From NCBI GenBank assembly GCA_964592485.1, contig CAZQEY010000001.1, forward strand, positions 95,935 through 159,934: a stretch of 64,000 bases of DNA. The letters are read 5' to 3'. Of the stretch, positions 15,889 through 56,211 are shown piece by piece (position 1 is the first letter of the stretch; every line of letters starts with the position of its first letter). Source of the stretch: an uncultured Planctomycetales bacterium (GTDB lineage Bacteria; Omnitrophota; Gorgyraeia; Gygaellales; JAHJCI01). The notes beneath the pieces were generated by a model that saw only the letters and a program-made list of their open reading frames with translations, made no database searches and was not told the DNA's origin. A program made the position numbers and the translations under genes.

Positions 15889-16314
15889 TTATTTATGGCC
15901 TTCTATAAATACATGTTCCACATCCGGTTTAGTAATTGCAAACCGAATACCTGGCTCTTTCCCTACAACTTTAATACAATGCTTTTTATTATTCTTCACA
16001 AGAACTATATCATTCTCATATACCTTTTTAGTCCCTTCTCCCTCAATAAACCATTCCCATTCACCTTTTATAATAACCCAGCATTCGTCTGTATCAGGGT
16101 GATAATGCAACCTATTACCTTCTCCGGGCTTCTGAGCAATCAAAACACCACCAAATCGTTCATTATATACTATTCTCACTGCCCATGGCGGCTCTCCCAT
16201 TTTCCTGCCAATCTCTTCAAAAGATGTAACCGATTTATTGGCAGAACTATTAATATCTACATTTGCAATCCCGTCATCATGAAATATTTTATACAGGTTT
16301 TTCTCTCCATCCAT
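15889..16314 (-). CDS. cupin-domain protein
   Basis: HYHPDTDECWVIIKGEWE plus a downstream His, typical of cupin_2 metal-binding motifs. Confidence 0.55.
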   Translation of the reverse strand: MDGEKNLYKIFHDDGIANVDINSSANKSVTSFEEIGRKMGEPPWAVRIVYNERFGGVLIAQKPGEGNRLHYHPDTDECWVIIKGEWEWFIEGEGTKKVYENDIVLVKNNKKHCIKVVGKEPGIRFAITKPDVEHVFIEGHK

Positions 16315-25670: not shown

Positions 25671-25756
25671 GTAGATAGAAATTATTGCACTATACACCAT
25701 AAAACTCTGTTGAGTTAAACAATTTATAAGACATTCGATTTGTAAGATAGAAATTA
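25671..25756. repeat. direct repeat AGATAGAAATTA (x2, 71 bp apart) spanning the 88-bp intergenic region upstream of the 688-aa gene
   Basis: GTAGATAGAAATTA at 25671-25684 and GTAAGATAGAAATTA at 25742-25756. The second copy overlaps the stop codon of the amidotransferase gene. Confidence 0.3.
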
Positions 25757-29649: not shown

Positions 29650-29656
29650 CGTATCC

Positions 29657-30277: not shown

Positions 30278-30293
30278 TGATATTCTCTTTTTT

Positions 30294-35005: not shown

Positions 35006-35074
35006 ACCGTTTTGCTTCTGAATACTCGCAGAGCTATTGTAGACACTGCAGTCGCCAAATGCATATGCGGCTCT

Positions 35075-36571: not shown

Positions 36572-36599
36572 GTGTATTCTATTTAGATAATTAATAATG

Positions 36600-37775: not shown

Positions 37776-38757
37776 CCCATTTATATCTATTAAGATTTTC
37801 TTTATGTTTAAACCATTTTATGGTTTCCAGAAGTCCTTCTTGTAAAGAAACTTTGGGCTTCCAATTGGTCAACTTTCTTATCAATCTATTGTCACACACC
37901 AAACGTTTGACTTCACTTCTACCTGGTCTTTTTCTTGCGACTTCACAAGTAATTCTTGCTTTAGGTTTTATCTGTTTTATTATTAGTCCTGCGAGGTCGC
38001 CGATAGTTGTCTCCTGACCTGATCCAATATTAACTACCTTACCAATAGCTTTATCGCATTTAACAAGAGCCATTAACCCTTCACAAATATCCTGTACGTA
38101 GTTAAAATCTCTTGTTGGGAAAAGTGAACCAAGTCTTATTTCGTTGTTTTCATTTAATAGCTGAGTAATTATAGTAGGAATAACTGCTCTTGCAGACTGC
38201 CGTGGACCGTATGTATTAAATGGCCTGGCAATTACCACCGGCAACCCAAAGGATCTATAGAAACTCTCTGCTACAGCATCAGCAGCGATTTTCGAGGCAG
38301 AATACGGAGATTGAGGCTGTAGCGGATGTTTCTCATCTATAGGAACATACTTGGCTGTGCCGTATACTTCAGATGTAGATGTAACAACTACCCGCTTAAT
38401 ATTATAATCGCGGCAGGCTTGCAGAATATTTAAAATACCTTTAATATTTGTATTCACATAAGAATCGGGGGAATGATAAGAAAACGGTATCCCTATTAAA
38501 GCTGCTAAATGAAAAACTACATCTATATCCTTTATTGCTCTTCTAACACCGTTATTATCCCGGATATCACCAGTAAAAACCTCTATTTTGTTTAATTTAT
38601 CCTTTGGAAAGGTATCAAGCCATCCCCAAGAATTAAAAGAATTATAATAAACAAAGGCTTTAACATTACAATTGGCCTTAAGTAAACTCTCTACTAAATG
38701 ACTGCCAATAAATCCACAAGCACCGGTAACTAAAATCCTTTTGCCTTTTAACTCCAT
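37759..38757 (-). CDS. NAD-dependent nucleotide-sugar dehydratase/epimerase (candidate LegB-like 4,6-dehydratase)
   Basis: RILVTGACGFIGSHLVESL and the YSASK catalytic motif. Adjacency to the aminotransferase suggests the 4,6-dehydratase step. Confidence 0.65.
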   Translation of the reverse strand: MELKGKRILVTGACGFIGSHLVESLLKANCNVKAFVYYNSFNSWGWLDTFPKDKLNKIEVFTGDIRDNNGVRRAIKDIDVVFHLAALIGIPFSYHSPDSYVNTNIKGILNILQACRDYNIKRVVVTSTSEVYGTAKYVPIDEKHPLQPQSPYSASKIAADAVAESFYRSFGLPVVIARPFNTYGPRQSARAVIPTIITQLLNENNEIRLGSLFPTRDFNYVQDICEGLMALVKCDKAIGKVVNIGSGQETTIGDLAGLIIKQIKPKARITCEVARKRPGRSEVKRLVCDNRLIRKLTNWKPKVSLQEGLLETIKWFKHKENLNRYKWDVYNV

Positions 38758-38772: not shown

Positions 38773-40209
38773 TTATTCTCCTTCTCGCTTATAATGCCTG
38801 GAGCCTCTAAACTTGTAATCTCCTTTAAAATATAAATTATAAAACTGATCAATCAGAACTTCAGTTTGGTTCACATCTTGATTTGTGTGTTTATAATAGT
38901 CTTCAATAAGTTCTTTATTGGCCTCGAATAAACACTCATAGAATCTTTTTTCTGAGATTTCTGTAAAATTAATTGTTAATAAATCTGAATTCTTGAATCG
39001 CTCAAAGAACTCCTCTGGGCCCGATAACAACCCTCTATCTATAGCCTCATAATATAAATCACAACCCGGATAAGGCGTAACTGGTCTTATAGTCCTAATT
39101 TGATTATAGGTATTATATTTCTTTATAAACGCGACATTATCCTTAAGAACCTCCTCAGTATCTCCTTTATTACCCCATAAAAAATTCAATCCCATTCCAA
39201 TGCCCACTTTTTTTGTAAGTTCTGCGGCTTTAATGTTCTGTTCCACTGTGGACTTTTTATTCATAAGGTCCAATACTCTTTGGCTTGAAGACTCCATACC
39301 AAAGTTAAGAAATGTACAACCGCAATCCTTTAACATCTCCAGCAAATCTTCATTCAGTACATCTACTCTAGCATTACAATCAAACTTTATTTTGAGATTA
39401 TTGGCCTTGAGAGAATCCTTAAGTTCTTTTATGCGTTTTTTTGAAAAAATAAATAATTCATCGGATAAAGAAAAATAAGTTATTCCAAAATCATTGTTTA
39501 ATACCTTCATCTCTTCAATAATACTTTCAATACTCCTGAGTCTAATGCCTTTCTCAATTCTATAACAAAAATTACATTTGCCAACGCAACCCCTGCTTGT
39601 CAAGAAACTTATATACCTATCGGTCTTTTCGTGATGAAAAAGTTTAATACAGGTAGCGTAATTATCAACTGGAAATAAGTTCCACTCAGGAAAAGGAATA
39701 TTATTTAAATTTTTAATGGGTTCTCGTCTCTCATTAATATAGCACCTACCGTTTTCTTTATATGCAATCCCTTTAATTTTAGAAAGCTTGCGCCCCCCGG
39801 CTATCTTGCAATGCAACAGTTCAACAATCGTCTCTTCTGCTTCTCCAATAGCTATAATATCTGCTTTGGTTTTATCTAGTATATATTCTGGGATAGGTGA
39901 GGGCCCATGGCCGCCTAACACCAAGTAAGCATTCTTTTTGCACTCATTTATAACCTTGCATAAATCAAGGATGGTTTCCTTAAATCTTGCTGCCATAAAA
40001 CCAATACCGATTAAATCAAACTCGTTCTCTAACAAAAACTTTGATAATTCTTCATTCGAATAATGAAAAACATCCTGCGAATATACAGTTACTTGGGCTC
40101 CCTCTTTTTTTAATACCGAGGCCAAATACCCTATACCCAGAGGAAATACGTTATCATCCTGATAAACATCATGAACTATTAAGAGTACTCTACCTAATTC
40201 TTTCTCCAT
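38773..40209 (-). CDS. cobalamin (B12)-binding radical SAM enzyme (class B rSAM)
   Basis: CxxxCxxC (RGCVGKCNFCYR). I placed the start at ATG 40209 with an AGGGAGA RBS; the track start at 40236 would overlap the upstream gene by 47 nt. Confidence 0.85.
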   Translation of the reverse strand: MEKELGRVLLIVHDVYQDDNVFPLGIGYLASVLKKEGAQVTVYSQDVFHYSNEELSKFLLENEFDLIGIGFMAARFKETILDLCKVINECKKNAYLVLGGHGPSPIPEYILDKTKADIIAIGEAEETIVELLHCKIAGGRKLSKIKGIAYKENGRCYINERREPIKNLNNIPFPEWNLFPVDNYATCIKLFHHEKTDRYISFLTSRGCVGKCNFCYRIEKGIRLRSIESIIEEMKVLNNDFGITYFSLSDELFIFSKKRIKELKDSLKANNLKIKFDCNARVDVLNEDLLEMLKDCGCTFLNFGMESSSQRVLDLMNKKSTVEQNIKAAELTKKVGIGMGLNFLWGNKGDTEEVLKDNVAFIKKYNTYNQIRTIRPVTPYPGCDLYYEAIDRGLLSGPEEFFERFKNSDLLTINFTEISEKRFYECLFEANKELIEDYYKHTNQDVNQTEVLIDQFYNLYFKGDYKFRGSRHYKREGE

Positions 40210-41755
40210 ATATATTTTCTCCCTTATATTGCCCATTTTCCCATAAGCTCTGTATGGCTCTGGTTACGGAAATTACATTTTCTTTAGGAGAAATATTTAC
40301 TAATTTCTTATAGCTACTATCGACATATCCTTGGAAACTGAACTTTTCTAAAGCATAGATAAATGCCCTTACATTCTGAGTATTAACTTTATATCCCTTT
40401 TCTATCTTCGATAAAGCCTCTTTGCAGCTAGACTGAGTCGGAGTATAGAATACCCCTTCGCAACCTCTGTACCATGCGTATCCAAAAATAAGAACTGGCT
40501 TGCCTCTTATTACCGCCTCCCAGCCCACCGTTCCAGTGACTGTGGCGACTGCTTTGGAATTATCAATCAGGTCAAACGATGATACTGAAAGCGACACTAG
40601 TTTTACATTAGGTAGTGAAGCAATATCATCATAAAAATAAAGGGGTCTTGAACGTTCGCCTACTGCATAGGGGCTGAATTGTACTATATGTTCCTTTACA
40701 TACAAACTCCACCCTTTAGGTAACAATTTAGAAAGTAAATCTATCATAAGCAGCTGGTTAACAAAGACTCCTCCATCAGGAGAAGTAGTTTTTTCTGGTT
40801 GATAATGAAGCACAACATAGATATATGGTTTATCAATACAAACCGGCTCTGCCAATTTATTATAACAAGACTTGAGCTTTCGTTTATATTGCTCAGCTTT
40901 AAATTTACACAGCCAGATATATTTAAGATAAGTCATCTTTGAATCATCAAATTTCCTGCCCTTTAGTTTTATATAATTATGTGGCGCAGGCTTATAAATA
41001 AACTGTATATATTTACATAAAGTCCGTAATTTCTTCATAATAATAGTAATGAGATTATTCTCTTTAGCTTTTTGTAAGAATTCATGCTTTATATACGAAG
41101 GGAACGCAATATCATAAGAGCCTAAAACCTTTTTCCAATAATTCTCTGCAATAGGTGACAATGTAAGCTCTAAAGGTTGTCTGCGAGATAGCAGTTCTTT
41201 ATATAAAGATATTACTGGTTCAATCCTATCTTCGAATCTCTCTATCGGATAGAATAGCCCTTCGATGGTTAAGGTTAAAAACGTAACTGTTCTTATTCCT
41301 TGTCTCTTACATAAAATATATAATATATAATCATACACTATATGCGGAGAGGCAGGAAAAACAACAACATCTGGTTGATAATGTTGCAGAACTGAAAGCC
41401 AATACTTAATCTGCAGATGATAAAGTCCTTCTCGCTCCTGATAGGAAAAAGCACAACCAGGATCCATCCTATCAAGCATATTGAATATAGTTGATTCATA
41501 AACTGCTAAATCCTGTAACAATGCTTGATCTAGGGTTGCTAGATTAAGCCCTGAGCAATCATGCGGACTATGCCCTCTGATTGCATCTATGGTATAATGG
41601 AATACTATCTCGGGAAAAGCTCGCTTGACAATACTTTCCAAATCCGGCATGGCAATCCAATAACACGGCTGCCAATCGCTTTCTCTTTTGAGACTCACAG
41701 CCACATCCACCCAAAAGGACTCAGAACACTCGGCAAAGATTGCTTTAATAGCCAT
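40190..41755 (-). CDS. hypothetical protein with a KpsC/KpsS-like (Capsule_synth-type) C-terminal motif; candidate CMP-ulosonic-acid transferase
   Basis: C-terminal TVTGTVGWEAVIRGKPVLIFG resembles the conserved t-x-S-S-x-G-x-E-A-l-x-x-G-k-P-V block of KpsC/KpsS beta-Kdo transferases. YQPEK sits where the other paralog-like proteins carry an HP motif. Confidence 0.45.
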   Translation of the reverse strand: MAIKAIFAECSESFWVDVAVSLKRESDWQPCYWIAMPDLESIVKRAFPEIVFHYTIDAIRGHSPHDCSGLNLATLDQALLQDLAVYESTIFNMLDRMDPGCAFSYQEREGLYHLQIKYWLSVLQHYQPDVVVFPASPHIVYDYILYILCKRQGIRTVTFLTLTIEGLFYPIERFEDRIEPVISLYKELLSRRQPLELTLSPIAENYWKKVLGSYDIAFPSYIKHEFLQKAKENNLITIIMKKLRTLCKYIQFIYKPAPHNYIKLKGRKFDDSKMTYLKYIWLCKFKAEQYKRKLKSCYNKLAEPVCIDKPYIYVVLHYQPEKTTSPDGGVFVNQLLMIDLLSKLLPKGWSLYVKEHIVQFSPYAVGERSRPLYFYDDIASLPNVKLVSLSVSSFDLIDNSKAVATVTGTVGWEAVIRGKPVLIFGYAWYRGCEGVFYTPTQSSCKEALSKIEKGYKVNTQNVRAFIYALEKFSFQGYVDSSYKKLVNISPKENVISVTRAIQSLWENGQYKGENIYGERIR

Positions 41756-43673: not shown

Positions 43674-43729
43674 GATTATTCCTCAACATATACAAACAAG
43701 ATTCAATATATCAAATCCAATATATCAAC
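43674..43729 (-). promoter_or_regulatory. candidate sigma70-like promoter plus RBS upstream of the ABC exporter gene; contains a tandem 11-bp repeat CAATATATCAA x2
   Basis: The minus strand reads TTGATATATTGGATTTGATATATTGAATCTTGTTTGTATATGTTGAGGAATAATCATG. It has TTGATA hexamers, TATATG about 16 nt downstream of the second one, and GAGGAA 7 nt before the ATG. Confidence 0.2.
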
Positions 43730-44750
43730 TAAACATCCCCCAACTTAAAGGGGTTCCTTTCTTTATATCCTTTTTTGCTATCTTACCCACTATTGATTCT
43801 AAATATTTAGGAGCAAGCCCATATGCAGGTCTGATAGAACTTATATTGTCTTCAGTAAATCTTGCTCCTTTCTGTATATTTTCTATTGCGAATAAAGAAC
43901 GGCGAAAAACCTTACTCTTTTGTTCTTTTTTAGTTAATCCATAATGGACTTCACCTAAGGATTTTTCTACAATCCTTACATTTCCTACAAGTTTTTTTAA
44001 CTCTTCCGGCTCAATTGAGAAAAAGCTATCCGGGCCTTTGTTGCTCTTTGATAAGGTAAAATGTTTTTCTATAATCTCTGCGCCTAAGGTTACAGCAGCA
44101 ATTGATACTCCAATACCTAAGGTGTGGTCCGAGAGGCCTATCGAACATTTAAATTTGTCTCTCATATGGGGAATCGTTTTCAAGTTCATCTCTTCTGGCT
44201 GTGCAGGGTAAGTGCTTACGCATTTTAATAATGTTATATTCTTTGCTCCTGCATCCTTGGCAGTATTTACTGCCTCTTTAATTTCAGAAATAGTTGCCAT
44301 CCCTGTAGATAAAATAAGTGGCTTTTTTGTCTTTGCCATATATTCAATTAGGGGCAAATCAACCAGTTCAAAAGAAGCTATCTTGTGCAAAGACACTCCC
44401 AATTCTTCAAGAAAGTCTACAGCTGTCTTATCAAAAGCCGTAGCAAAAAACAAAATCCCTAAATCGTCTGCTACTTTCTTTAATTTTTTAAACCATTTCC
44501 ACGGCGTATAGGCTTTTTTATATAACTGATATAAAGTCTGACCTCCCCACTGGGGATGTCTTATTCTGAAATATTTATTATCAATATCTATTGTCACGGT
44601 ATCTGGAGTATAAGCTTGAAACTTTACAGCGTCCACACCGCACTCTTTTGCCTTTTTTATAAGTGTAATCGCTCTCTTAAAATTCTGCCCATGATTAGCC
44701 GAGATTTCTGCCACAATAAAACAATTTTTTCTCACCCTATAATCCTTCAT
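43725..44750 (-). CDS. pseI: NeuB-family nonulosonic acid synthase (pseudaminic acid synthase PseI-like)
   Basis: FIVAEISANHGQNFKRAITLIKKAKECGVDAVKFQAY. It sits in a Pse-type gene context. Confidence 0.85.
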   Translation of the reverse strand: MKDYRVRKNCFIVAEISANHGQNFKRAITLIKKAKECGVDAVKFQAYTPDTVTIDIDNKYFRIRHPQWGGQTLYQLYKKAYTPWKWFKKLKKVADDLGILFFATAFDKTAVDFLEELGVSLHKIASFELVDLPLIEYMAKTKKPLILSTGMATISEIKEAVNTAKDAGAKNITLLKCVSTYPAQPEEMNLKTIPHMRDKFKCSIGLSDHTLGIGVSIAAVTLGAEIIEKHFTLSKSNKGPDSFFSIEPEELKKLVGNVRIVEKSLGEVHYGLTKKEQKSKVFRRSLFAIENIQKGARFTEDNISSIRPAYGLAPKYLESIVGKIAKKDIKKGTPLSWGMFS

Positions 44751-46252
44751 TTGACTTTTTTAAATTTAAAAACAGTTGTCTGTCTATCGGCCTTGGACAG
44801 ATTATGCGAAAATACATAACCCGCCTTTTGAAATGCTTTCTTAGAAACAATATTTTCACTAACCACTTCTGCTATTATCTCTTTAATTTTAGGTTTTTCT
44901 TTCATAAAAGCCTCTGTTGCCAGCTTGATAATCCGATTGCCGAATCCTTTACCAAAGAATGCCGGATTCAGATTTACATTTATATAAGCCTGCCTGTCTG
45001 CGTTTGACTCAAATCTCACCTGTCCAACCTTGCCTATTTCTTTATTTACCGCAATATATATACGAGATTGCTTGCTTTGAATTTTTTTATCAAACCATTC
45101 TTTATGACTGTCATATTCTATTCTGTCTGGACTAAAACTCCATTTTCGTACTTCAGGATGGTTTCTCCAAGACCATAAATCATAGCAATCATCCTGCCCT
45201 GCATTTCTCAATTCAATCTCATGATTTCGAGTCTTCCTGCTTTCCAAGCTAAATTTATCTCTTATTAACGCCTCAACTGTCCTTATGGCACCCCCGCCAT
45301 CTATCAAATCCCTTCCTGCTTTGCTGCATCTAATCCTTTCCCCTTGAGGCATCAGCTTGTCTATGGCCTGGCTCAATCTAAAAAGTAATTCTTTATCTTC
45401 ATACCATCCTGCAGATACAACAAATCCATGCCTCTGCCAACCCTCCAAGTTTCTTTCCTGATTCTTAGCCACACAAATTCCTGCCGTGGGAACCCCCACC
45501 CTGGCAAGTTCAGACAGAGTCTGTCCTCCTGCAGAAATAGCTACATCTGCCTTTAGCATAATTTTTTTAATTTGCTCTGCCTTCGGATAATAAATTAAAT
45601 TAGTATTGCTGTCCGCTTCTGATTTAATTAAATCTATGTTGTTAAAAGACCTCCCTATCGCCACGTTCTTCTTAAGATGGGGATAATGTCCTCTCAGGAA
45701 TCTTAAAATCTTGGGCATCATGTTCCTTATGTCATCCCCACCGAACATAACCAAAATAGTCTCTATGTTTTTTTTTATATTTTTATCGGGAACTTTCCAA
45801 AATTCTTTTCTTAATGGTGCATACCTTACCCCTAACAAATAGGTCAATCCTTTCTTGATGGGATAATCAATTTCCTCCGCACAAATCAAACCGTTGAAAA
45901 CTATGCCCCTTGGATAATTCAGCCTCATATTATCATCGATATAGACCGGGATATCTACTAATTCTGAAATCCTCTTATAAAAATTAAAGTCTGCTAAATA
46001 AGAATCAACGACCACCATAGACCTGCCTTTTATAAAATGAAGTATCCATTCCTTTTCTTTTAGCCAATCAAAAATCTTATATTTTCTGCCTTTCAATAAA
46101 TCTTTAACGCTATCATCTCCATTGACTACAAACTCTGACATAAAGCCTTTTTCTTCAAAGGCCTGAGATAAAGAAATACAGCGGCTCATATGTCCAAATC
46201 CGATATCTTTACCACCTTCGGTAATAATAAATACTTTATTAAATACGAACAT
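44747..46252 (-). CDS. bifunctional PseG-like UDP-sugar hydrolase (N-terminal GT-B domain) fused to a PseH-like GNAT N-acetyltransferase (C-terminus)
   Basis: The N-terminus IITEGGKDIGFGHMSRC matches the PseG G-x-G-H-x-x-R signature. The C-terminal ~170 aa have a GNAT fold with FGKGFGNRII. The reading frame is continuous over 501 aa. Confidence 0.7.
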   Translation of the reverse strand: MFVFNKVFIITEGGKDIGFGHMSRCISLSQAFEEKGFMSEFVVNGDDSVKDLLKGRKYKIFDWLKEKEWILHFIKGRSMVVVDSYLADFNFYKRISELVDIPVYIDDNMRLNYPRGIVFNGLICAEEIDYPIKKGLTYLLGVRYAPLRKEFWKVPDKNIKKNIETILVMFGGDDIRNMMPKILRFLRGHYPHLKKNVAIGRSFNNIDLIKSEADSNTNLIYYPKAEQIKKIMLKADVAISAGGQTLSELARVGVPTAGICVAKNQERNLEGWQRHGFVVSAGWYEDKELLFRLSQAIDKLMPQGERIRCSKAGRDLIDGGGAIRTVEALIRDKFSLESRKTRNHEIELRNAGQDDCYDLWSWRNHPEVRKWSFSPDRIEYDSHKEWFDKKIQSKQSRIYIAVNKEIGKVGQVRFESNADRQAYINVNLNPAFFGKGFGNRIIKLATEAFMKEKPKIKEIIAEVVSENIVSKKAFQKAGYVFSHNLSKADRQTTVFKFKKVK

Positions 46253-46997
46253 TTATTTTTCGTTGTTTAAGAAATTGTTTTATTAATAACGGTGTTATTT
46301 CAGTAAAATGAAAAATGCTTGCTGCCGCTATAGCTGAACTTCCTCCCTTCGCTAAAGCCTCAAATGTATGCTCACAATTCCCCGCCCCACCAGAAGCAAT
46401 CACCGGTATTGATACAGCTCCAGTGACACTACGTATTAACTCTATATCATAACCTTGCATAGTGCCATCTCTGTCTATAGAGGTTAATAAAATTTCACCA
46501 GCCCCCATCGCCTCAACTTGTTTTGCGAACTCTGTTGGCTCTATAGAAGTGAGTTCTGTGCCTGAACGAATGAACACCGCATATTTACCGGTTGATATTT
46601 TTTTTGCATCAATGGAGACCATTATACACTGAGAGCCAAACTTGCCAGCTGCATCTCTAATAATATTTGGGGTAAGAAAGGCGGCACTATTGATCACAAC
46701 TTTATCAGCACCATACTGCAAGAGACGTCTTATATCCACAACCGTTTTTATACCTCCACCGACAGCCAAAGGCATAAAACATTCATCAGCAAAATCATCA
46801 ACTAAACTAAAATCTGGAGGCCTATTTTCTAAAGTAGCTGCGATATCAAGAAAAACTAATTCATCTACCTCCCGCATGTTATATACTTTTACTGCTTGCA
46901 TCAAACTACCCACGCGGCGCCAACTATCAAATTGCACGCCTTTAACAAGGGTAAAATTTTTATAAAGAAGGGTTGGTATAATTCGTGTTTTCACCAT
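46239..46997 (-). CDS. hisF: HisF-like cyclase subunit (WbuZ-like)
   Basis: RIIPTLLYKN...VDELVFLDI...GGGI HisF TIM-barrel blocks. Confidence 0.85.
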   Translation of the reverse strand: MVKTRIIPTLLYKNFTLVKGVQFDSWRRVGSLMQAVKVYNMREVDELVFLDIAATLENRPPDFSLVDDFADECFMPLAVGGGIKTVVDIRRLLQYGADKVVINSAAFLTPNIIRDAAGKFGSQCIMVSIDAKKISTGKYAVFIRSGTELTSIEPTEFAKQVEAMGAGEILLTSIDRDGTMQGYDIELIRSVTGAVSIPVIASGGAGNCEHTFEALAKGGSSAIAAASIFHFTEITPLLIKQFLKQRKINVRI

Positions 46998-47012
46998 GAT
47001 TTAAAATCCTTC

Positions 47013-47639
47013 TTAAAGTAACAAAAAATTACGTATTATCTTAAGGCCAAAATGCTGACTCTTTTCTGGATGAAACTGAACACCAAAAATATTCTCTTTG
47101 CAAACTGCGGAAATAAAATATCCACAATAAGGGGTCCTTGCACAAACGTCAATTTCTCGCTTACATATAAAATGATAACTATGTACAAAATAAAAGTCTT
47201 TTCCCGTAGGGATATCTTTAAATAAAGGTGTGGATTGAGTAAAGGCAACTTCATTCCAACCTATATGAGGTATTTTATCAATTGATTGTTTAGACTCCAA
47301 TCTTTTTACCTCCCCCTCAATCCATCCTAAACCCTCAGTTTTTCCTCCTTCGAATCCAGTTGTTGCCAGAAGCTGCATACCCAGACAAATACCAAGTAAT
47401 AGGGTTCGTCTCTCAATAACCTCTTGCCTTAATATCCTATCAATGCCTAACTTACGTATATTAGCCATCCCATCGGCAAAAGCCCCAACTCCCGGGAGGA
47501 TTATCTTATTTGCAGTTTTTAAATCACGGATGTCGTTAGTAAGAATCGGGGTTCCTTCACACTCCTCTACTGCTCGAGCAATAGAATCCAGATTTCCCAT
47601 ACCGTAGTCTACAATTGCCACTTTTTTCATAAATATCAC
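47013..47639 (-). CDS. hisH: HisH-like glutamine amidotransferase (WbuY-like)
   Basis: KVAIVDYGMGNL, GICLGMQLL and HPEKS. About 50% identity to the other HisH homolog at 26989-27699. Confidence 0.9.
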   Translation of the reverse strand: MIFMKKVAIVDYGMGNLDSIARAVEECEGTPILTNDIRDLKTANKIILPGVGAFADGMANIRKLGIDRILRQEVIERRTLLLGICLGMQLLATTGFEGGKTEGLGWIEGEVKRLESKQSIDKIPHIGWNEVAFTQSTPLFKDIPTGKDFYFVHSYHFICKREIDVCARTPYCGYFISAVCKENIFGVQFHPEKSQHFGLKIIRNFLLL

Positions 47640-47659
47640 CGTATATTTAAAAGAGTTTA

Positions 47660-48856
47660 TTAATGGAATACTGACTCAGCTATTACAGCTTTATTAAAAT
47701 TTTCATCCACGTTGTCGTCATTTATCTTTATAAGATTGCCATACTTGTCTTTTACTAAATTCCCTTTAGAGTCAAGCCTGAACAATTTTTTATTAGTAAA
47801 TCTGTCACAGACCCTTACAAATTCCTCAAGTGTCATATCAATATCCTTGAGTATTTCTTCTAAGGAACAACCAAGATACACCCAGGGAAATTTCCCGCCA
47901 TGTTTTTTTACCAGTACCATAGCTTCTTCTCTTGTAAGTCTGCCTCGTCGGATATGTAAACACGCCAAATCAGAAACACGGTCATAACCGTATTTTAAAA
48001 ACTTGAAATAGTCATGTATGCCAACTTGACAGTTATCTAAATTCTCATAATTAACCAATGAATGCTCAACCGTTGTGGGGTAGGTATTAAAACCATACGC
48101 CTGAGCAATTAAGGCATTTCTATAACCATCCCAGGGGAAATAGTAACCAAGAAAAAGGCCTGTGACACCAACCCTCCTTAATTCTTCATTGGAAGGATAT
48201 GTGTACGGAATAAGATGTTTTTGTTCAATGCCTTCTTGGCCAATCCAATCAGATACCCGCAAACCCAAAAGTCCACCGAACTCCTCCAGCCAACGCCGGT
48301 TTAAAATATTATCTTCCGATGCAACTACAGGACCACCATACTCATTCTGGGAATTCTCCCCCCAGATAATCAGCGGAACATTGAATTGGACTGCTATACG
48401 CACAGGAATTGTGAAAATCGAAACATGCTCCGGCCAAGATATATCTCCTATTTGAGTAAGCGCCATTCTGTTGATTTTTCTACGAACTACCGGGTTAGCT
48501 GAAACCTCAATATAATCAACGCCAAGTTTCTTTATATTTTCGATATTGCGCCGTCCTATATCAGACAATTTATCTGTTGTTGCAGTGACACATAAAGGAT
48601 TCATACCCAGCTCCAGCATTTTTATAGTTTGGAAGTGACTATCTTTACCTCCGCTGGATGGAACTATACAGTCATAATTATTACCATTATTGTTACGATA
48701 CCGTTTGAGTATACCGAGTAATTCCTCCTTGCGTTTATTCCAATCGACAGACTTTCTACGTTCGAAACTACGGCAGGCGCAGCATATTCCTTCTTCATCG
48801 AGATAAAGGTCTGGCTTTGTTTCCGGCATTACACAACTTTTACAATAGCGTATCAT
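47660..48856 (-). CDS. pseA: N-acetyl sugar amidotransferase (PP-loop; PseA/WbuX-like)
   Basis: Zinc-ribbon N-terminus (CKSCVMPETKP...CCACR), then the PP-loop CIVPSSGGKDSHF. Confidence 0.85.
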   Translation of the reverse strand: MIRYCKSCVMPETKPDLYLDEEGICCACRSFERRKSVDWNKRKEELLGILKRYRNNNGNNYDCIVPSSGGKDSHFQTIKMLELGMNPLCVTATTDKLSDIGRRNIENIKKLGVDYIEVSANPVVRRKINRMALTQIGDISWPEHVSIFTIPVRIAVQFNVPLIIWGENSQNEYGGPVVASEDNILNRRWLEEFGGLLGLRVSDWIGQEGIEQKHLIPYTYPSNEELRRVGVTGLFLGYYFPWDGYRNALIAQAYGFNTYPTTVEHSLVNYENLDNCQVGIHDYFKFLKYGYDRVSDLACLHIRRGRLTREEAMVLVKKHGGKFPWVYLGCSLEEILKDIDMTLEEFVRVCDRFTNKKLFRLDSKGNLVKDKYGNLIKINDDNVDENFNKAVIAESVFH

Positions 48857-48918: not shown

Positions 48919-49563
48919 TTAATTTTTCTTTCTAAGTAGAAACATTACATCTATATTATCATTATCTATATACTTATATCGTTTCTCTCTGACTAGTTTT
49001 AAATCATCAAATAAATCCATATACAGCTTTGCATAATCTGCCTTCCAATGCATATTCTTCTTACCTCTATATATAATCTCTGTAAACTTGGGAGCATAGT
49101 ATTCAAATCCCCAAATATATCTACGGGTGGACCTATGGATTTCTTCCATTACCTTCTTTATATCCAATGGATGAATATGTATAAGAACTCCGGAGGTAAA
49201 AACAAGATCAAAGTATTTGTCTTTAAAAGGGATATCAAATGCAGACCCCTTAATTATGTTAATATCTTTAGTCCTTGATTTAGAAAACTCAATTGCATAA
49301 CTATTTATTTCTATGCCGTAGAGATTTTTAAATCCCATTTTTTTAAGCAGAAGTAACTGATTACCTATGTTTGAACCAACCTCTAATATTCTAAGATTCC
49401 GATTGAGTCTTCCGATAACTGCATTATTCATTTCCCTGCGACTAACCCCGCAGTTCTTTCTATACAATTTATCTAACTCACTTAAGCTAAGGGCATTTCT
49501 ATCGGTATATTCCTTGCCAAACCTCCCTGCCCAATTTTTAATCTGGTAAGTTTTTTTAATCAT
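48919..49563 (-). CDS. small class I SAM-dependent methyltransferase (pseudaminic-acid-cluster-associated methylase type)
   Basis: Motif I LRILEVGSNIGNQL and motif II DLVFTSGVLIHIHP. Size and context fit the roughly 200-aa methylases that accompany Pse genes. Confidence 0.65.
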   Translation of the reverse strand: MIKKTYQIKNWAGRFGKEYTDRNALSLSELDKLYRKNCGVSRREMNNAVIGRLNRNLRILEVGSNIGNQLLLLKKMGFKNLYGIEINSYAIEFSKSRTKDINIIKGSAFDIPFKDKYFDLVFTSGVLIHIHPLDIKKVMEEIHRSTRRYIWGFEYYAPKFTEIIYRGKKNMHWKADYAKLYMDLFDDLKLVREKRYKYIDNDNIDVMFLLRKKN

Positions 49564-49593: not shown

Positions 49594-50442
49594 CTATGAA
49601 GCCTTATATTTTAAATTAGCTTCTAAAAAGCCTTTTGCCTTTTTTAAATCTTGTAACTCTAATATTCTTATGGCTTCCTTTATCTCTTCATCTAAGGTTA
49701 AGGCTATTTTCTTTTGAACACTCTTTTTATTTATAAGCTTCAACCATGGCTTTTCATTAAACAATTTTATTATATCCTCTGTATTAAAGAACTTATTTTG
49801 AGGATATAAATAATCGAAAACTGAACATAACAAGGCATAATCTTCTTCCGTATCAAGCGTGATTCTTATCTCTGGCGCATAAAGATGTCTTGTTGCTTCA
49901 ACCTGGATTATTTTAAAAATAGTAGGATTTCGATAAATATAAGGTGTAACGTGCTCCCTTTCATAATCTTCGCAAGCATTTTTGTGTGACTTTTCTAAAG
50001 AATCGAAATTAAAAACCTCTACATCAAGACCGCGAGGATAGGTTTTTTTAAAAGAGTTTGTAGCATAATCTACCTCTGCTTGTATGCATTCCTCAATAAT
50101 TAAATCGATAATTTCTGAATCATGGCAAGGACAATCACTAGTGGCCCTTACCACCATATCCAAATTATTCTCTCTAGCAGCCAAATAATACCTAGACAGA
50201 ACATCTTCTTGACTTCCCCTAAAACAAGTTATCTTCTCTTTTTCTGCAATATTAACGATTTTGTTATCGCTTTTTTCAACTGTTGTAGCAACTATAATCT
50301 CATTAAGCTTTTTAGACTGTTTTAACCTTCTAATGACCTGTTCTAAAACAGTTATGCCACTGGCGAAAGGTAGCTCTTTTAAAATTTTTCCAGGTAATCT
50401 TGTTGAGGAAAATCTTGCTTGAACTATCGCTCCTATCTTCAT
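49594..50442 (-). CDS. CMP-sugar cytidylyltransferase (SpsF/PseF-like)
   Basis: MKIGAIVQARFSSTRLPGKILKEL is a SpsF/FlmC/PseF-type CTP_transf_3 N-terminus. Confidence 0.75.
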   Translation of the reverse strand: MKIGAIVQARFSSTRLPGKILKELPFASGITVLEQVIRRLKQSKKLNEIIVATTVEKSDNKIVNIAEKEKITCFRGSQEDVLSRYYLAARENNLDMVVRATSDCPCHDSEIIDLIIEECIQAEVDYATNSFKKTYPRGLDVEVFNFDSLEKSHKNACEDYEREHVTPYIYRNPTIFKIIQVEATRHLYAPEIRITLDTEEDYALLCSVFDYLYPQNKFFNTEDIIKLFNEKPWLKLINKKSVQKKIALTLDEEIKEAIRILELQDLKKAKGFLEANLKYKAS

Positions 50443-50500: not shown

Positions 50501-51697
50501 TTATTTAACTGTTTTCAGAACACTGTCTATTATCCGTGCGCACTCCTTATCTTGCAAACCTGGAAACAAAGGTATAGTAAGCGCAGAATCATAGAAAGCT
50601 TCTGCCTCTGGGAAATCGCCCCTCTTGTAACCAAATCTTTCTCTATAGTAGGGCTGGAGATGGAGTGGAATGTAATGCACATGCACCCCAATTCCCATTG
50701 TTCGCAACTCTTCAAAAACCTGACGCCTTGTCTTAACCATCCTATCTAAACGAAGACGAAGCATATAGAGATGCCAAGCACTCTGCCGGTTTGTTTCTTG
50801 ATAGGGGATTATTAAATATGGAGATTTAACAAAAGCCTCATTGTAACGCTGGGCAATTTCACGACGCCGGGAAATAAACCGGGCTAATTTTTTAAATTGG
50901 CTTAACCCTAATGCGCATTGAATATCTGTAATACGGTAGTTGTAACCCAATGCCTGCATTTCATAATACCATGGTGCTTTAGAATTAGGATTGCGTCCAT
51001 CCGAATATGAATTCTGGTTATCAGCCGCCTGGTCCTTATATATCATGTTATTGTTATCATTAGTAATCCCGTGGGTACGAAAAAGACGTAATTTTTTTTC
51101 CAATGATTCATCATCTGTAATAATCATTCCTCCCTCACCAGTTGTAATATGTTTTACGGGATGGAAGGACAAAATTGTCATATGCGCCAGAGTGCCTACA
51201 GGTTTACCTTTATAAGATGCACCTAAAGAATGAGCCGCATCATGGATTATCGTTATATTATTCTTTTTTGCTATCTTATTAATCTCATCCATATCGCAAG
51301 GCTGCCCGGTAAAATCTACAGGAATAATTGCTTTAGTTCTTGAGGTTATCGCTGCATCTATTTTATTAGCATCTATACAATAAGTATTACTTTTTATATC
51401 AGCGAATTTAACAGTTGCCCCAACAAAAAGAGCGCAATTCCCACTAGCAGCAAAGGTAATGGGAGAAGTAATAATTTCATCTTGAGGTCCTATGTCGGCA
51501 GCAAAACAGGCACAATGCAGTGCTGCTGTCCCAGTTGCAACCGCAATAGCATATTTAGCACCAGTATAAGCACAAACCGCATCCTCAAACTCCTTTATCT
51601 TAGGTCCTTGAGTAATCCAATCGCTCCTAAGCACTCCAATAACTTCATCAATATCATCTGAATCTATGTATTGTCGAGCGTAAGGAATGTATCTCAT
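50501..51697 (-). CDS. pseC: UDP-4-amino-4,6-dideoxy-N-acetylhexosamine transaminase (PseC-like DegT aminotransferase)
   Basis: IPYARQYIDSDDIDEVIGVLRSDWITQGPKIKEFE matches the PseC N-terminus. It carries DegT-family PLP-lysine region blocks. Confidence 0.85.
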   Translation of the reverse strand: MRYIPYARQYIDSDDIDEVIGVLRSDWITQGPKIKEFEDAVCAYTGAKYAIAVATGTAALHCACFAADIGPQDEIITSPITFAASGNCALFVGATVKFADIKSNTYCIDANKIDAAITSRTKAIIPVDFTGQPCDMDEINKIAKKNNITIIHDAAHSLGASYKGKPVGTLAHMTILSFHPVKHITTGEGGMIITDDESLEKKLRLFRTHGITNDNNNMIYKDQAADNQNSYSDGRNPNSKAPWYYEMQALGYNYRITDIQCALGLSQFKKLARFISRRREIAQRYNEAFVKSPYLIIPYQETNRQSAWHLYMLRLRLDRMVKTRRQVFEELRTMGIGVHVHYIPLHLQPYYRERFGYKRGDFPEAEAFYDSALTIPLFPGLQDKECARIIDSVLKTVK

Positions 51698-51718: not shown

Positions 51719-53152
51719 TTACTTACTATCAATTCCTTTTAATGCCTCAAGATTACTATGTCGTGAGTCATCGGTATTCGCGATATCGCCTTTTTCAAAA
51801 ACAGACTTAAGCTCTCTTAATCCCTCCAATACTTTAATCTGAGCACGATAGCCTAAAATCTGCTCAATCTTATTAAAATTAACTCTATAATTACGTGTGT
51901 CTGGCGAACTTGTGATATGTCTTATTTTGACTTCGGGAAATACTTGTGTAGTCAAATCTGCAAGCGTATTAATTGTATGATTTTGCTCTCCATTACCTAC
52001 ATTAAATACTTGCCGCGATACCTTATCAATAGGTGCTTCTAAGGTCTTAATAATTGCTCTTGCCACATCAATCACATGCACATTCGGCCGCCATTGATTA
52101 CCTCCAAAGACCTCTATGCATTTCTTGAAAAATGCATTCTTAGCAAAGGTATTAACTACTAAATCAAAGCGAGGCCTATAGGAATAACCAAATACAGTTG
52201 CCAGGCGTAAAATTGTCGGTGCAAATAAAGGGCTGGATATTCCCAATAATGCTTGCTCTGTCATTATTTTCATACGCCCATAGTACGAAACAGGATTAAG
52301 TTCACAATCCTCTGATAAATATGCCTCTGGGTCCCTACTCCCTCCATACACACTGCAAGAAGATGTATATATAAAACGATTTATATTCAAATAGGCGCAA
52401 AGATGCGCCATATTAGCAACCGATAGATAATTTGTCTTTAATGCCCTTCCCGGCCTATAGGCACAGGCAGCGTCACCAACGATCTCGGCAAGATAAACTA
52501 CAGCATCTATACCTTCTATTGTTTCAACTAAATCATTAATGTTTGTTACATCGCCATGTACAATTGAACAATACTCACTCTCGATTCCCTCTAAAGATGT
52601 CTGCTTATAGAGAAAATTATCTAATATACGTACTTTCCAGCCTTCGGCCAATAATACCCTGGTAAAAATAGAACCAATATAACCAGCACCGCCAACAACT
52701 AACACATGCGGATGGCCTGACCTTCTACCATTTTTCTTTGTAGCATCACTACCTTTGATCTGCAACATCTCAGGAACAACTAAACCAATAAGTTTATGAT
52801 TCTCGCTGATTACGGGAATTGTAGCCTGTTGCCCTAACCCATTGCCATATCGTTGATATATTTGGTCAATAACATGAACTCGCTTCAATTCATCGTCTAA
52901 ATCCTTGAGTTGGATTATAATAGGTTTAGTATTCATAACATCTACCAGAGGTGTATTCACGGATTTACCATTGAGTATTGCATTCCGAAGATCCCCTTCT
53001 GAGACAATACCGCAAAACCGGTTCCCCTCTTCGATAATCGTAACTACCATCCCAAATCTTCCATTGATAGCCTTGAAGGCATCCGAGATAGTATTGTTAC
53101 GGCTAAGATTCAAACTTGGAATAAACTCTATTTTATTATTGAAATTCATCAC
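51719..53152 (-). CDS. N-terminal CBS domain fused to an NAD-dependent nucleotide-sugar epimerase/dehydratase (candidate first-step 4,6-dehydratase of the Pse-type branch)
   Basis: The ~150-aa N-terminus has CBS-like blocks (GIVSEGDLRNAIL, GLVVPEM). The SDR part carries VLVVGGAGYIGS and a YGRMK catalytic context. Confidence 0.65.
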   Translation of the reverse strand: MMNFNNKIEFIPSLNLSRNNTISDAFKAINGRFGMVVTIIEEGNRFCGIVSEGDLRNAILNGKSVNTPLVDVMNTKPIIIQLKDLDDELKRVHVIDQIYQRYGNGLGQQATIPVISENHKLIGLVVPEMLQIKGSDATKKNGRRSGHPHVLVVGGAGYIGSIFTRVLLAEGWKVRILDNFLYKQTSLEGIESEYCSIVHGDVTNINDLVETIEGIDAVVYLAEIVGDAACAYRPGRALKTNYLSVANMAHLCAYLNINRFIYTSSCSVYGGSRDPEAYLSEDCELNPVSYYGRMKIMTEQALLGISSPLFAPTILRLATVFGYSYRPRFDLVVNTFAKNAFFKKCIEVFGGNQWRPNVHVIDVARAIIKTLEAPIDKVSRQVFNVGNGEQNHTINTLADLTTQVFPEVKIRHITSSPDTRNYRVNFNKIEQILGYRAQIKVLEGLRELKSVFEKGDIANTDDSRHSNLEALKGIDSK

Positions 53153-53189
53153 GCTTAGCTTAATTTATCTGGCTAGATAGCCCATACTC

Positions 53190-53633
53190 CTAACGTGGTG
53201 TAATTTCCCACGGATTCCAATAGTATGCATCATAACGATAATCATCATCTTTGCTTTGCTCTAAAGTCGCAGTGGAAAAGAACATTACCTGCGTATCTGG
53301 CTTGAGTGTCATAAATCCATTAGCATATCCTGGAGGTATTACTAAGATCCCCGGCTTTTTATCACTCAAAATATAGCGAAGGACATCTACATTCTTGCTA
53401 GGACAATCCCAATTATCTATTTTAACCGCTACCACCAGCGCTGTTCCGGAAACGACGAGAACAAACTTAGCTTCTTTTTTGTGAGCATGCCAGGCTCGTA
53501 TAAATCTGGATTCGTGATTCGAAACTAAATAGAATCTGCGCACATCCTTCATATCAAAACCATTGCAGAATAATAACTGCCCTCTATCATCTACAGCAAT
53601 CATCCCTTCAATATACCTAACTTTATCATCCAT
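53190..53633 (-). CDS. sugar 3,4-ketoisomerase (FdtA/WxcM-like cupin)
   Basis: RGQLLFCN...RFYLVSNHE...RAWHAHKK matches the FdtA/QdtA pattern. A strong GGGAGGA RBS lies 7 nt upstream. Confidence 0.7.
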   Translation of the reverse strand: MDDKVRYIEGMIAVDDRGQLLFCNGFDMKDVRRFYLVSNHESRFIRAWHAHKKEAKFVLVVSGTALVVAVKIDNWDCPSKNVDVLRYILSDKKPGILVIPPGYANGFMTLKPDTQVMFFSTATLEQSKDDDYRYDAYYWNPWEITPR

Positions 53634-53695
53634 TAAATCCTCCCACTATTATTCGGTGGTACTATTGAATTACCGCATAAGTTGTAGGCGATCTT

Positions 53696-54766
53696 TTATG
53701 TCGAATATACTTCTTTAATTTTTGACTGTTGTTGAAATATCTCCCTTAGCGTCTTATCAATAGTATAAGTTAATTTCCATTGCGGATAATGGTTCGTAAA
53801 TTTAGAATTATCAGTTATCCACCAAATATGGTCTCCTTTCCGATTCTTATCTACATACTCATAATTTATTTTCTTGCCGTAAATCTCCCGACACAAATCA
53901 ATTGCTTCTAATATTGATACATTAGAAAATCTCCCCCCGCCTATATTGTAAATCTCTCCGCAGCGAGGAGCTTGATAAAAATGGTAAAAGGCATTTACCA
54001 AATCATAGGAATGAATATTATCTCTTACTTGCTTGCCTTTATATCCATAGATTGTATATTTCTTGCCCATTATAGCGGACCTTACAAGATAAGATAAGAA
54101 TCCATGGAGCTCTGTCCCTGAATGGGCAGGACCTGTAAGGCACCCGCATCGAAATACACCTGTTTTTAAACCAACGTATTTGCCATATTCCTGAACAAGT
54201 ATATCTGCAGCGGCCTTAGAAGCACCAAATAAACTATGTAGGCAATCATCTATACTCATTGATTCATCTATCCCCAGATAGTATTTGTGACTAGAAGGGA
54301 GTTCAAATCTCTTCTGGAGTTCTATTAAAGGAAGTTTGTTTGGTCTATCACCATAGACCTTGTTTGTAGAAGTAAATATAAAGACTGCATTAGGAGAATA
54401 TGTCCGAAAGCTTTCAAGAAGGACCAATGTCCCATCCGCATTCACAGTAAAATCAGTAAAGGGATCTTTTGCTGCCCAATCATGAGAAGGTTGAGCTGCA
54501 GTATGTATTATTAAATCAAACTTATATTCTTTAAATAACCTCTCTATATTTTCTCTATCCCGTATATCAATATCATGGTGAATATATCCCGAAATTGTCT
54601 CTACAAGTAATTTCTTAACCCATTCAACAGAAGCATCTTCGCCGAAGAAAACCTTTCTCATATTGTTATCTATCCCGACTACTTTAAATCCCTTCTGAGA
54701 AAAAAAGCGTACACACTCAGAGCCAATTAATCCTGCTGAACCTGTAACTAAGGCTAATTTTTCCAT
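53696..54766 (-). CDS. NAD-dependent nucleotide-sugar epimerase of the CDP-paratose/tyvelose 2-epimerase (RfbE-like) subfamily
   Basis: [14 protein letters not shown]. Blocks [24 protein letters not shown] and IYNIGGG align with RfbE ([27 protein letters not shown]). Confidence 0.65.
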
Positions 54767-54790
54767 ATAGCGCGCTCTTTAATTTATAGT

Positions 54791-55774
54791 TTATTTATCA
54801 CAACAATATACTGCGTTAGCAACCATTTTCTCAATCCACCTATAGGTTTTCTCTAAACCTTCTTCCAAACTAATCTGGGGTTCCCACTCCAACACTTGGC
54901 GTAATTTTGTATTGTCACTATTTCTTCCTCTTACACCCTGAGGAGCACTGAGGTTATATTTTCTGACTATTTTTTTCTTGGATATTTTTATAATTATGTC
55001 GGCTAATTCGTTAATGGTTACCAATCTGTCTGAGCCTATGTTAAGAGGTTCGTTACAATTTGATTCCATCAGCATAATAACACCCTTTATGCAATCGTCT
55101 ATATAGCAATAGGATCGGGTTTGCCTCCCATCTCCCCAAATTTCTATCTCACCAGGATCATTGGCTTCTGCAACCTTACGGCACAAAGCTGCGGGTGATT
55201 TTTCTCTTCCACCTTTATATGTTCCTTCAGGACCATAGATATTATGATAACGAGCTATCCGTATATCTAAACCGTAATCTTTTTTAAAAGCTTCTAACAT
55301 CTTTTCTGTATAAAGCTTTTCCCAACCATAAAAATTATCCGGGTCTGCAGGATAGGCATCTTCTTCTTTTAAGGGTTTTACCTCTGAGGTTTTTTGTTTA
55401 TAGGTAGGATAGACACAAGCAGATGAAGAGAAAAGAAGACATCTAACGTTGTTTTCTACACAGGCCTTCATTATATAAGTATTTATTAAAACATTGTCAT
55501 ACATTATATCCGCACCAACTTCTGTAATAAAACCAATTCCTCCCATATTTGCTGCTAAGTTAAATACATAGTCCACGCCTTCCGTTGCCTTTAAACAATT
55601 TTGAAATCTTCTTAAATCAAGAGTTAATTTTTCAGAGTAATAAGGTTCTTTTATATAACCATCCCATTTAATATCCGCTACTCTCACAAAGTTATCTTTC
55701 TTAAAAAGCTCTCTTGCTAAATGTGAACCAATAAATCCTCCCGCTCCAGTTACCAAGATTTTTTTGTTTTGCAT
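54791..55774 (-). CDS. GDP-mannose 3,5-epimerase homolog
   Basis: ILVTGAGGFIGSHLA. Long collinear blocks (VDYVFNLAANMGGIGFI, SSACVYP, RYHNIYGPEGTYKGGREKSPAALCRK, GDGRQTRS) closely match plant and bacterial GME (VDHVFNLAADMGGMGFI, ASSACIYP, RFHNIYGPFGTWKGGREKAPAAFCRK, GDGLQTRS). Confidence 0.8.
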   Translation of the reverse strand: MQNKKILVTGAGGFIGSHLARELFKKDNFVRVADIKWDGYIKEPYYSEKLTLDLRRFQNCLKATEGVDYVFNLAANMGGIGFITEVGADIMYDNVLINTYIMKACVENNVRCLLFSSSACVYPTYKQKTSEVKPLKEEDAYPADPDNFYGWEKLYTEKMLEAFKKDYGLDIRIARYHNIYGPEGTYKGGREKSPAALCRKVAEANDPGEIEIWGDGRQTRSYCYIDDCIKGVIMLMESNCNEPLNIGSDRLVTINELADIIIKISKKKIVRKYNLSAPQGVRGRNSDNTKLRQVLEWEPQISLEEGLEKTYRWIEKMVANAVYCCDK

Positions 55775-55810: not shown

Positions 55811-56158
55811 TCAGAGATTTTTTTGATTATTGCTCTTATTATTTAAATAAGCCTCCCATTCCCTTCTTAGATTTTCGTACTCCTGTTGTTTTCTCTCTAA
55901 AAAATGCAAGGTAAGTTCTGCCTTCTGTTTTATGCCTCTTGAGGTCAAATTATAGGAAATTCTGCTTAATTTATGGTTTTTATGAGAAAAGTTCTTTATC
56001 TTGACAAATCCCTTTTTGATAAGTTCTTTGATGAGATAGTTGGTTTTTCCTAAAGATATGCCTAAATGAGCGGATAAATCTCTTTGGGTAGGACTATCGT
56101 TTAAGGATAAAATACGTAGAATATTAAGAATATCCTCTTTAAGGGTATGTTCATCCAT
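55811..56158 (-). CDS. winged-helix transcriptional regulator, EPS-locus-associated MarR-like
   Basis: A small 115-aa protein. The block PTQRDLSAHLGISLGKTNYLIKELIKKGFV is an HTH recognition region, and the C-terminus has a coiled coil. Its position inside the polysaccharide locus is typical of EPS-associated MarR-type regulators. Confidence 0.55.
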   Translation of the reverse strand: MDEHTLKEDILNILRILSLNDSPTQRDLSAHLGISLGKTNYLIKELIKKGFVKIKNFSHKNHKLSRISYNLTSRGIKQKAELTLHFLERKQQEYENLRREWEAYLNNKSNNQKNL

Positions 56159-56211
56159 TGAACAATATTATAGGAAGAACATACCTAACTGTCAAGAAAT
56201 AATTTAAACCT

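Follow-up and report, generated by a model that had tools for sequence, protein, structure and literature searches.

A putative PseA-type acetamidino-forming gene trio in the pseudaminic acid module of a surface-glycan island from an uncultured Omnitrophota bacterium

Two gene trios in one window

The subject of this analysis is a trio of adjacent genes within a 64,000-nucleotide stretch of DNA (the window; positions 95,935 to 159,934 of the forward strand of contig CAZQEY010000001.1, GenBank assembly GCA_964592485.1) from an uncultured bacterium deposited as Planctomycetales and placed by GTDB in the Omnitrophota. All of the large open reading frames (ORFs) of the 64-kb window are on the minus strand. 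An earlier reading made from the letters alone (the sequence-only reading) had placed at 46239-48856 a second acetamidino-type gene set, here called trio 2, with a gene order opposite to that of a first set (trio 1). Its presence and the opposite orders were borne out by the ORF list and by NCBIfam matches, and three consecutive minus-strand ORFs were found at exactly those positions. In order of transcription they encode an amidotransferase of the NASAT/WbuX family and PseA-type lineage (X2, 47660-48856, 398 residues), a HisH-like class I glutaminase subunit (H2, 47013-47639, 208 residues) and a HisF-like barrel of the WbuZ type that is a putative ammonia conduit (F2, 46239-46997, 252 residues), an order that we abbreviate X-H-F. 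An independent gene call starts H2 nine nucleotides later, giving a product of 205 residues.

Against the NCBIfam models, X2 scored 334.1 bits for WbuX (TIGR03573, cut-off 203.2) and H2 scored 234.6 bits for HisH (TIGR01855, cut-off 105.4). F2 scored 299.4 bits for WbuZ (TIGR03572, cut-off 299.7), 278.1 bits for the hisF model (cut-off 294.55) and 279.3 bits for AglZ/HisF2 (cut-off 310). The NASAT family is defined by a PP-loop, SGGXDS, together with a zinc-binding tetracysteine motif, CXXC...[GN]XCXXC (PMC10607449). X2 contains both, with the PP-loop SGGKDS starting at residue 68 and the tetracysteine motif CKSC...EGICCAC at residue 5 (CKSCVMPETKPDLYLDEEGICCAC), and it matched the Legionella pneumophila NASAT structure, PDB 8WEX, with an E-value of 5.6e-38 (134 bits). 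H2 has the Cys and His-x-Glu motifs of the glutaminase triad, namely GICLGMQ with the nucleophile (residue 83) and HPE (residue 190). Trio 2 is an intact and ordinary cassette of the predicted acetamido-to-acetamidino type, a known kind of system.

The genes on either side of trio 2 belong to a pseudaminic acid (Pse) module, all on the minus strand, with a Pse-associated methylase upstream and a PseG/PseH fusion downstream, PseC further upstream and PseI further downstream. In order of transcription the module comprises the PseC aminotransferase (50501-51697; TIGR03588, 510 bits, cut-off 423.5); a cytidylyltransferase that is a candidate PseF (49594-50442; Pfam CTP_transf_3, 109.3 bits, with weak NCBIfam matches of the KdsB type); an S-adenosylmethionine (SAM) methylase linked to Pse biosynthesis, directly upstream of X2 (48919-49563; TIGR03587, 197.3 bits, cut-off 112.05); trio 2; the PseG/PseH fusion (44747-46252), whose residues 6-268 matched PseG (TIGR03590, 149.5 bits, cut-off 153.55) and residues 350-487 PseH (TIGR03585, 57.7 bits); and the pseudaminic acid synthase PseI (43725-44750; TIGR03586, 470.1 bits, cut-off 340.25). 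An ABC exporter, after PseI, also belongs to this gene set. Because the gaps between the module genes are 15-62 nucleotides and the 3' end of F2 overlaps the start of PseG/PseH by 14 nucleotides, we regard trio 2 as part of an operon. A sigma-70-like promoter match (12/12, consensus match only; 56167-56195, minus strand) just upstream of a MarR-type exopolysaccharide (EPS) regulator (55811-56158) may be where the long transcription unit with trio 2 begins. The region has no more sites than expected from shuffled sequence, and from this match to the 3' end of PseI there is a single terminator-like site on the minus strand.

Trio 1 (28568-25754) is located 18 kb from trio 2 on the same strand, at the distal end of a legionaminic acid (Leg)-type module, and is transcribed in the order F-H-X. 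Its HisF-like subunit, F1 (27696-28568), scored 276.1 bits for hisF and 269.9 bits for WbuZ; its HisH-like subunit, H1 (26989-27699), scored 203.6 bits for TIGR01855 and has the GICLGMQ and HPE motifs; and its NASAT amidotransferase of the Leg-linked lineage, X1 (25754-26950), scored 345.3 bits for TIGR03573. X1 has the PP-loop SGGKDS at residue 85 and a tetracysteine motif (CKKCVVSNQRPRITFDKNGVCSAC), and matched 8WEX over its full length with an E-value of 7.9e-101 (341 bits).

Divergence, gene order and pathway partners of the two lineages

Pairwise identity between the counterparts of the two trios is 32% for X, 38% for H and 43% for F, so that the 40-50% proposed by the sequence-only reading holds for F and is an overestimate for the other two; the similarity is nevertheless strong and reflects homology, not coincidence. 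Far closer relatives of each exist elsewhere. The relatives of X2 number in the thousands, and the 120 best are 73-80% identical and derive from Cyanobacteria, Chloroflexota, Omnitrophota and others; relatives of X1 at 67-82% identity are found in Elusimicrobiota, Omnitrophota and candidate phyla; and H2 groups with the HisH proteins of X2-type loci, to which it is 54-57% identical, versus 38% to H1. A neighbor-joining tree of 160 amidotransferases gathered in two surveys of loci (see below) showed a clean split between an X1 clade and a tight X2 clade. In this tree 8WEX belonged to the subclade that is sister to the X1 clade, with X2 at the opposite side of the family. When 1.84 billion cluster representatives were scanned exhaustively with HMMER, 4805 family clusters were returned. 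In a tree with 89 full-length representatives of such clusters, X1 and X2 met only at the root, and X1 ranked 102nd of 117 in distance from X2. Since their ancestor is the root and closer relatives occur in other phyla, neither trio is the closest relative of the other, and the phylogeny which the sequence-only reading had named as the place where its view might fail was found to agree with it.

That the same three protein families make up both trios, 18 kb apart on the same strand, might suggest that trio 2 is a recent duplication of trio 1 in this genome, followed by an inversion of the gene order. We regard this as vanishingly improbable, as the trios are only 32, 38 and 43% identical, compared with 68-82% for amidotransferase relatives in other phyla; the X1/X2 ancestor is the root, with approximately 100 sampled sequences nearer to X2 than X1 is; each gene order is kept across its own lineage; and the lineage-specific substitutions of the HisF-like subunits differ (D11L versus D130E/Q, see below). 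The earlier statement that the trios did not arise by recent tandem duplication consequently stands.

The surveys covered 80 genome loci of the X2 type (68-77% identity to X2), from many bacterial phyla and two Asgard archaeal metagenome-assembled genomes (MAGs), and 80 metagenome loci of the X1 type (51-78% identity to X1). The order X-H-F, directly on one strand, was found in 62 of the 73 X2-type loci with enough downstream sequence, and several of the exceptions keep this order with an inserted gene; F-H-X was found directly and in that order in 46/55 X1-type loci. The HisH and HisF proteins always best matched the version belonging to their own amidotransferase type, and therefore each trio is inherited as a unit. 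Among other NASAT lineages, in annotated plasmid records, the orders F-H-X, H-F-X and X-F-H are all seen. We conclude that the opposite orders in the window are those fixed in two lineages that diverged long ago, each moving with its own nonulosonic acid pathway. The "mirror order" of the sequence-only reading is accordingly correct as to direction, but reflects each lineage's fixed order and not a rearrangement in this genome. Its claim that the systems were "independently acquired" fares similarly: the divergence is ancient and each system has its own pathway, but acquisition as such can only be surmised and the HisF-like subunits appear to share one ancient origin.

To compare pathway partners, synthases were counted in loci longer than 12 kb, considering genes within 10 kb of the cassette. 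Among 60 such X2-type loci, a PseI-type synthase alone was present in 47, a LegI-type alone in two, both in one and neither in ten, with NeuC/LegG in one; among 37 X1-type loci, the corresponding numbers were one, 30, one and five, with NeuC/LegG in 30. One amidination system per nonulosonic acid, as had been proposed, is thus well supported, with X2-type trios accompanying PseI-type synthases, X1-type trios accompanying LegI/NeuC-type genes, and X1 being nearer to 8WEX.

The surroundings of individual X2 relatives are in keeping with these counts. The closest of them (80% identity) sits in a flagellar glycosylation island with flagellins, FliW, CsrA, PseB, PseC, PseH/G and PseI, which is followed by X-H-F, a methyltransferase, PseF, Maf, FliS and FliD. 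Flagellar or Maf genes were present within 10 kb in 21/80 X2-type loci and in none of the X1-type loci. The X2 clade includes Clostridium drakei, which is predicted to make Pse5Ac7Am (PMC13317340). This membership and a match at 75% identity with the source-given name "flagellin modification protein, PseA" are indirect links to the PseA of C. jejuni. A PseG/PseH fusion also follows the trio in two surveyed loci (L006 and L008), and a homolog of the methylase upstream of X2 is present in 49 of the 80 X2-type loci, adjoining the trio in 39. By analogy with PtmH, whose product is Leg5AmNMe7Ac (PMC13317340), the methylase at 48919-49563 might methylate amidino-Pse.

It is feasible that trio 2 acts on some other substrate, which could be another N-acetyl sugar, an earlier UDP-linked intermediate or the second nitrogen of the nonulosonic acid modified by trio 1. 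The sugars of NASAT enzymes do vary (ManNAc3NAcA for WbpG and L-FucNAc for WbuX; PMC10607449), a preprint describes acetimidoyl forms of other N-acetyl sugars in Campylobacter jejuni (10.64898/2026.04.20.719630), the island codes for many other sugar pathways and four cytidylyltransferases, and ten of the 60 long X2-type loci are without a visible Pse synthase. We nevertheless consider another substrate unlikely, because the X2 clade is tight (68-80% identity) and its members mostly have pseC/pseF on one side and pseG/H/pseI on the other, and because it is other, distant NASAT clades that serve other sugars.

A pairing of Pse and Leg trios like that of the window was found in one of the 80 X2-type loci, a Peregrinibacteria MAG (L073) with an X1-like F-H-X set and LegI/LegG within 10 kb. 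In four further X2-type loci there is an additional amidotransferase with no more than 35-38% identity to X2. They are L019 (Saccharibacteria) and L024 (Sericytochromatia), each with two amidotransferase genes, and L045 and L047, both Promethearchaeota (Asgard) MAGs in which an X2-type cassette of ~72% identity lies beside the divergent second gene. The second amidotransferases of L019, L024 and L045 were placed outside the tight X2 clade in the neighbor-joining tree. In three of the X1-type loci (L100, L109 and L131), the strand of the first amidotransferase also carries another that is X1-like (45-48% identity); in L131 the two are side by side. The double arrangement is therefore uncommon at this range but has precedent. 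To call it "unusual", as the sequence-only reading did, was an overstatement, given the pairing in L073 and that C. jejuni/coli use a single locus for flagellar glycosylation to produce PseAm (via pseA) as well as LegAm (via ptmG; PMC7099621, PMC3766260, PMC13130089).

The HisF-like subunits

The HisF-like paralogs were aligned to HisF of Thermotoga maritima, whose residue numbering is followed here and whose sequence as used agrees with PDB alignments. The HisF cyclase has two catalytic aspartates, D11 and D130. The ammonia-gate residues R5, E46, K99 and E167 are invariant in both HisF-like lineages. In F2 and in 69/69 members of the X2 lineage, Asp11 is replaced by Leu and Asp130 is kept. 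In F1, Asp130 is replaced by Glu, and in the X1 lineage by Glu or Gln in 41/45 members, with Asp11 kept in F1 and mostly so in its lineage. This residue pattern fits a barrel that would still conduct ammonia and activate the glutaminase, but would no longer make imidazole glycerol phosphate.

To place these subunits relative to histidine biosynthesis, a bootstrapped neighbor-joining tree was built from 10 authentic HisF proteins (bacteria and one archaeon), 26 lineage members and three other amidation-type paralogs. All of the amidation-type paralogs stood apart from authentic HisF in 184/200 bootstraps, a value which, from a small sample and a simple method, is indicative only. From this grouping we infer that both HisF-like lineages share one ancient origin, and the analysis favours one ancient recruitment of HisF followed by deep divergence. 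F1 and F2 are each nearer to a reconstructed ancestral HisF (50-51% identity) than to each other (43%). These identities raised the possibility that HisF had been recruited twice, separately, out of histidine biosynthesis, which is not favoured, as the amidation-type paralogs form one group in those 184 bootstraps.

The score of F2 for hisF (278 bits) and its identity of about 46-51% to authentic HisF proteins raise a further explanation, in which H2 and F2 make up the housekeeping imidazole glycerol phosphate synthase of the organism and lie beside X2 by chance. This is highly improbable: F2 is under the hisF cut-off of 294.55, Leu takes the place of the catalytic Asp11 throughout the lineage (69/69), no other his genes adjoin, and the amidation-type paralogs are split from the 10 authentic HisF proteins at the bootstrap frequency given above.

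Predicted role of trio 2 and the wider island

The Campylobacter PseA genes, whose order we take to be pseA, hisH, hisF, provide the nearest comparison for trio 2. In C. jejuni, as here, a NASAT amidotransferase (PseA, Cj1316c) with hisH/hisF-like neighbours lies inside a Pse locus, and PseA adds the acetamidino (Am) group to Pse5Ac7Ac (PMC7099621). The C. jejuni system is a flagellin PseAm pathway, and the X2 clade is also found in Maf/flagellin islands (21/80 loci). Unlike the C. jejuni setting, no flagellar or Maf genes were found in the 64-kb window; the setting here is an island of the polysaccharide type, with genes for an EpsG/Wzy-like protein, the ABC exporter and the MarR-EPS regulator. 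A flagellin context, however, characterises the Campylobacter system and need not be a property of the enzyme.

Campylobacter PtmG (Cj1324) and the L. pneumophila NASAT (8WEX), both of the LegAm pathway, are counterparts of trio 1 and not of trio 2, and 8WEX is much nearer to X1 (341 bits) than to X2 (134 bits). PtmG presumably has no adjacent HisH/HisF of its own. Its substrate is CMP-Leg5Ac7Ac and its product CMP-Leg5Am7Ac; in L. pneumophila, the O-antigen polymer is built of 5-acetamidino legionaminic acid and the lipopolysaccharide locus contains a ptmG homolog (PMC3766260). Trio 1 would do for legionaminic acid what trio 2 is proposed to do for pseudaminic acid. WbuX/WbuY/WbuZ of Escherichia coli O145 and WbpG with HisH2/HisF2 of Pseudomonas aeruginosa O5 have the same three-protein architecture as trio 2 and the same proposed acetamido-to-acetamidino chemistry with glutamine-derived ammonia, although the substrates of WbuX and WbpG are hexosamine derivatives (L-FucNAc and ManNAc3NAcA) and not nonulosonic acids (PMC10607449). 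A search of E. coli genome DNA returned no characterised reference (E. coli O145 WbuXYZ), and a search of plasmid proteins returned only uncharacterised homologs.

Overall, we consider it likely that trio 2 is the PseA-type acetamidino-forming cassette of the pseudaminic acid pathway in this surface-glycan island. In the mechanism we propose, H2 would hydrolyse glutamine to ammonia, which would pass through F2, a HisF-derived (beta/alpha)8 barrel with its gate residues kept and one cyclase catalytic aspartate lost, to X2, the three proteins presumably being physically coupled. X2, a predicted zinc-ribbon PP-loop ATP pyrophosphatase, would activate an N-acetyl carbonyl of Pse5Ac7Ac, probably as the CMP-sugar, and the ammonia would replace the carbonyl oxygen to form the acetamidino group. 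The positive charge of this group would neutralise the carboxylate of the sugar, and the adjacent SAM methylase may methylate the product further. The sequence-only reading had written the product as Pse5Am, which is more than can be claimed, as N5 and N7 cannot be told apart from sequence and Pse5Ac7Am is the product described for PseA of Campylobacter (PMC7099621).

Several points weigh against this assignment. The score of F2 is 0.3 bits short of the WbuZ cut-off, and 10/60 long X2-type loci have no Pse synthase within 10 kb of the cassette. The PseA-type label would follow from clade and locus context and not from a comparison with the sequence of Cj1316c, and the expression of both modules and the identity of both products are predicted here from the genes. 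The NASAT reaction is unreconstituted in the literature that we covered, and the use of ATP, also for 8WEX, is deduced from the PP-loop (PMC10607449). Finally, no match at the level of TIGR03589, the model for canonical PseB, was found anywhere in the 64-kb window.

The genes upstream of PseC (51719-55774, minus strand) may stand in for PseB. They encode a 477-residue fusion of CBS and short-chain dehydrogenase/reductase (SDR) domains, a 147-residue cupin/dTDP-sugar-isomerase-like protein, a 356-residue dehydratase-like SDR and a 327-residue GDP-fucose-synthase-like SDR. Homologs of the CBS-SDR fusion (37-40% identity) are found in two X1-type loci (L141 and L163), with the L163 copy directly upstream of a LegC-like gene.

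The Leg-type module that precedes trio 1 (28597-38757, minus strand) encodes LegB (TIGR04180, 495.2 bits, cut-off 475), LegC (TIGR04181, 512.2 bits, cut-off 420), a B12-binding radical SAM protein, a Gfo/Idh protein, a cytidylyltransferase, a PtmA-like SDR, NeuB/LegI (NeuB, 483 bits, cut-off 399.65), NeuC/LegG (NeuC, 453.6 bits), NeuD/LegH (NeuD, 222.6 bits) and a PtmE-like protein of CBS and nucleoside triphosphate (NTP)-transferase domains. Taking the two modules together, we suggest, tentatively and as something short of an even chance, that the island makes both PseAm-type and LegAm-type nonulosonic acids, maybe N-methylated or radical-SAM-methylated, as decorations of a surface polymer that is not flagellar.

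Four B12-binding radical SAM genes are present in the window, all on the minus strand (4149-5645, 20144-21535, 35075-36571 and 38773-40236), two of them inside or beside the Leg module, and genes of this kind also border cassettes of the X1 and X2 types in other loci (L002, L008 and L170). The region 8641-16314 (minus strand) is a possible third ulosonic-acid-like module, with genes for a HAD hydrolase, a cyclase, a 2-hydroxyacid dehydrogenase, an epimerase, a methyltransferase, a cytidylyltransferase (12739-13521), an HpcH/HpaI aldolase (13518-14339), a second cytidylyltransferase-like protein (14339-15067), an SDR and a cupin. Four large minus-strand ORFs (567-688 residues; 23599-25665, 16483-18456, 5642-7645 and 1562-3265) had no Pfam or NCBIfam match and are candidate glycosyltransferases or polymerases. 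The 688-residue ORF, directly downstream of X1, was considered as a homolog of the B12/radical SAM proteins of ~690-713 residues that occupy this position in L002 and L170, and no similarity was found.

Among named relatives of the UDP-glucose dehydrogenase (Ugd) of the window, the best (72-83% identity) all belong to Candidatus Omnitrophota MAGs, which makes an Omnitrophota origin likely; the exact proteins of the window also occur in a Logan assembly of SRR14802574. A related MAG (L172; GCA_029932815.1, JAOZPJ010000001.1), with a Ugd 84% identical to that of the window, shares the epimerase-ugd-rml-manC flank. Beyond this flank, as far as its short contig reaches, it has GT2 glycosyltransferases and a B12-radical SAM gene in place of the MarR/Pse region, and therefore the content of the island varies between relatives, consistent with a variable glycan locus.

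The finding of trio 2 adds no new kind of system. Amidination renders a negatively charged nonulosonic acid net-neutral (10.64898/2026.04.20.719630; PMC7099621), and it would therefore change the surface charge of the cell and its recognition by phage or by immune systems. The more general outcome is a rule for annotation, in that two deep NASAT lineages with opposite fixed gene orders track the Pse and Leg pathways very consistently. Order together with the signature of the HisF site could serve as a predictor of specificity, with X-H-F and D11L indicating Pse and F-H-X and D130E/Q indicating Leg, and the rule can help to predict glycan chemistry in uncultured bacteria.

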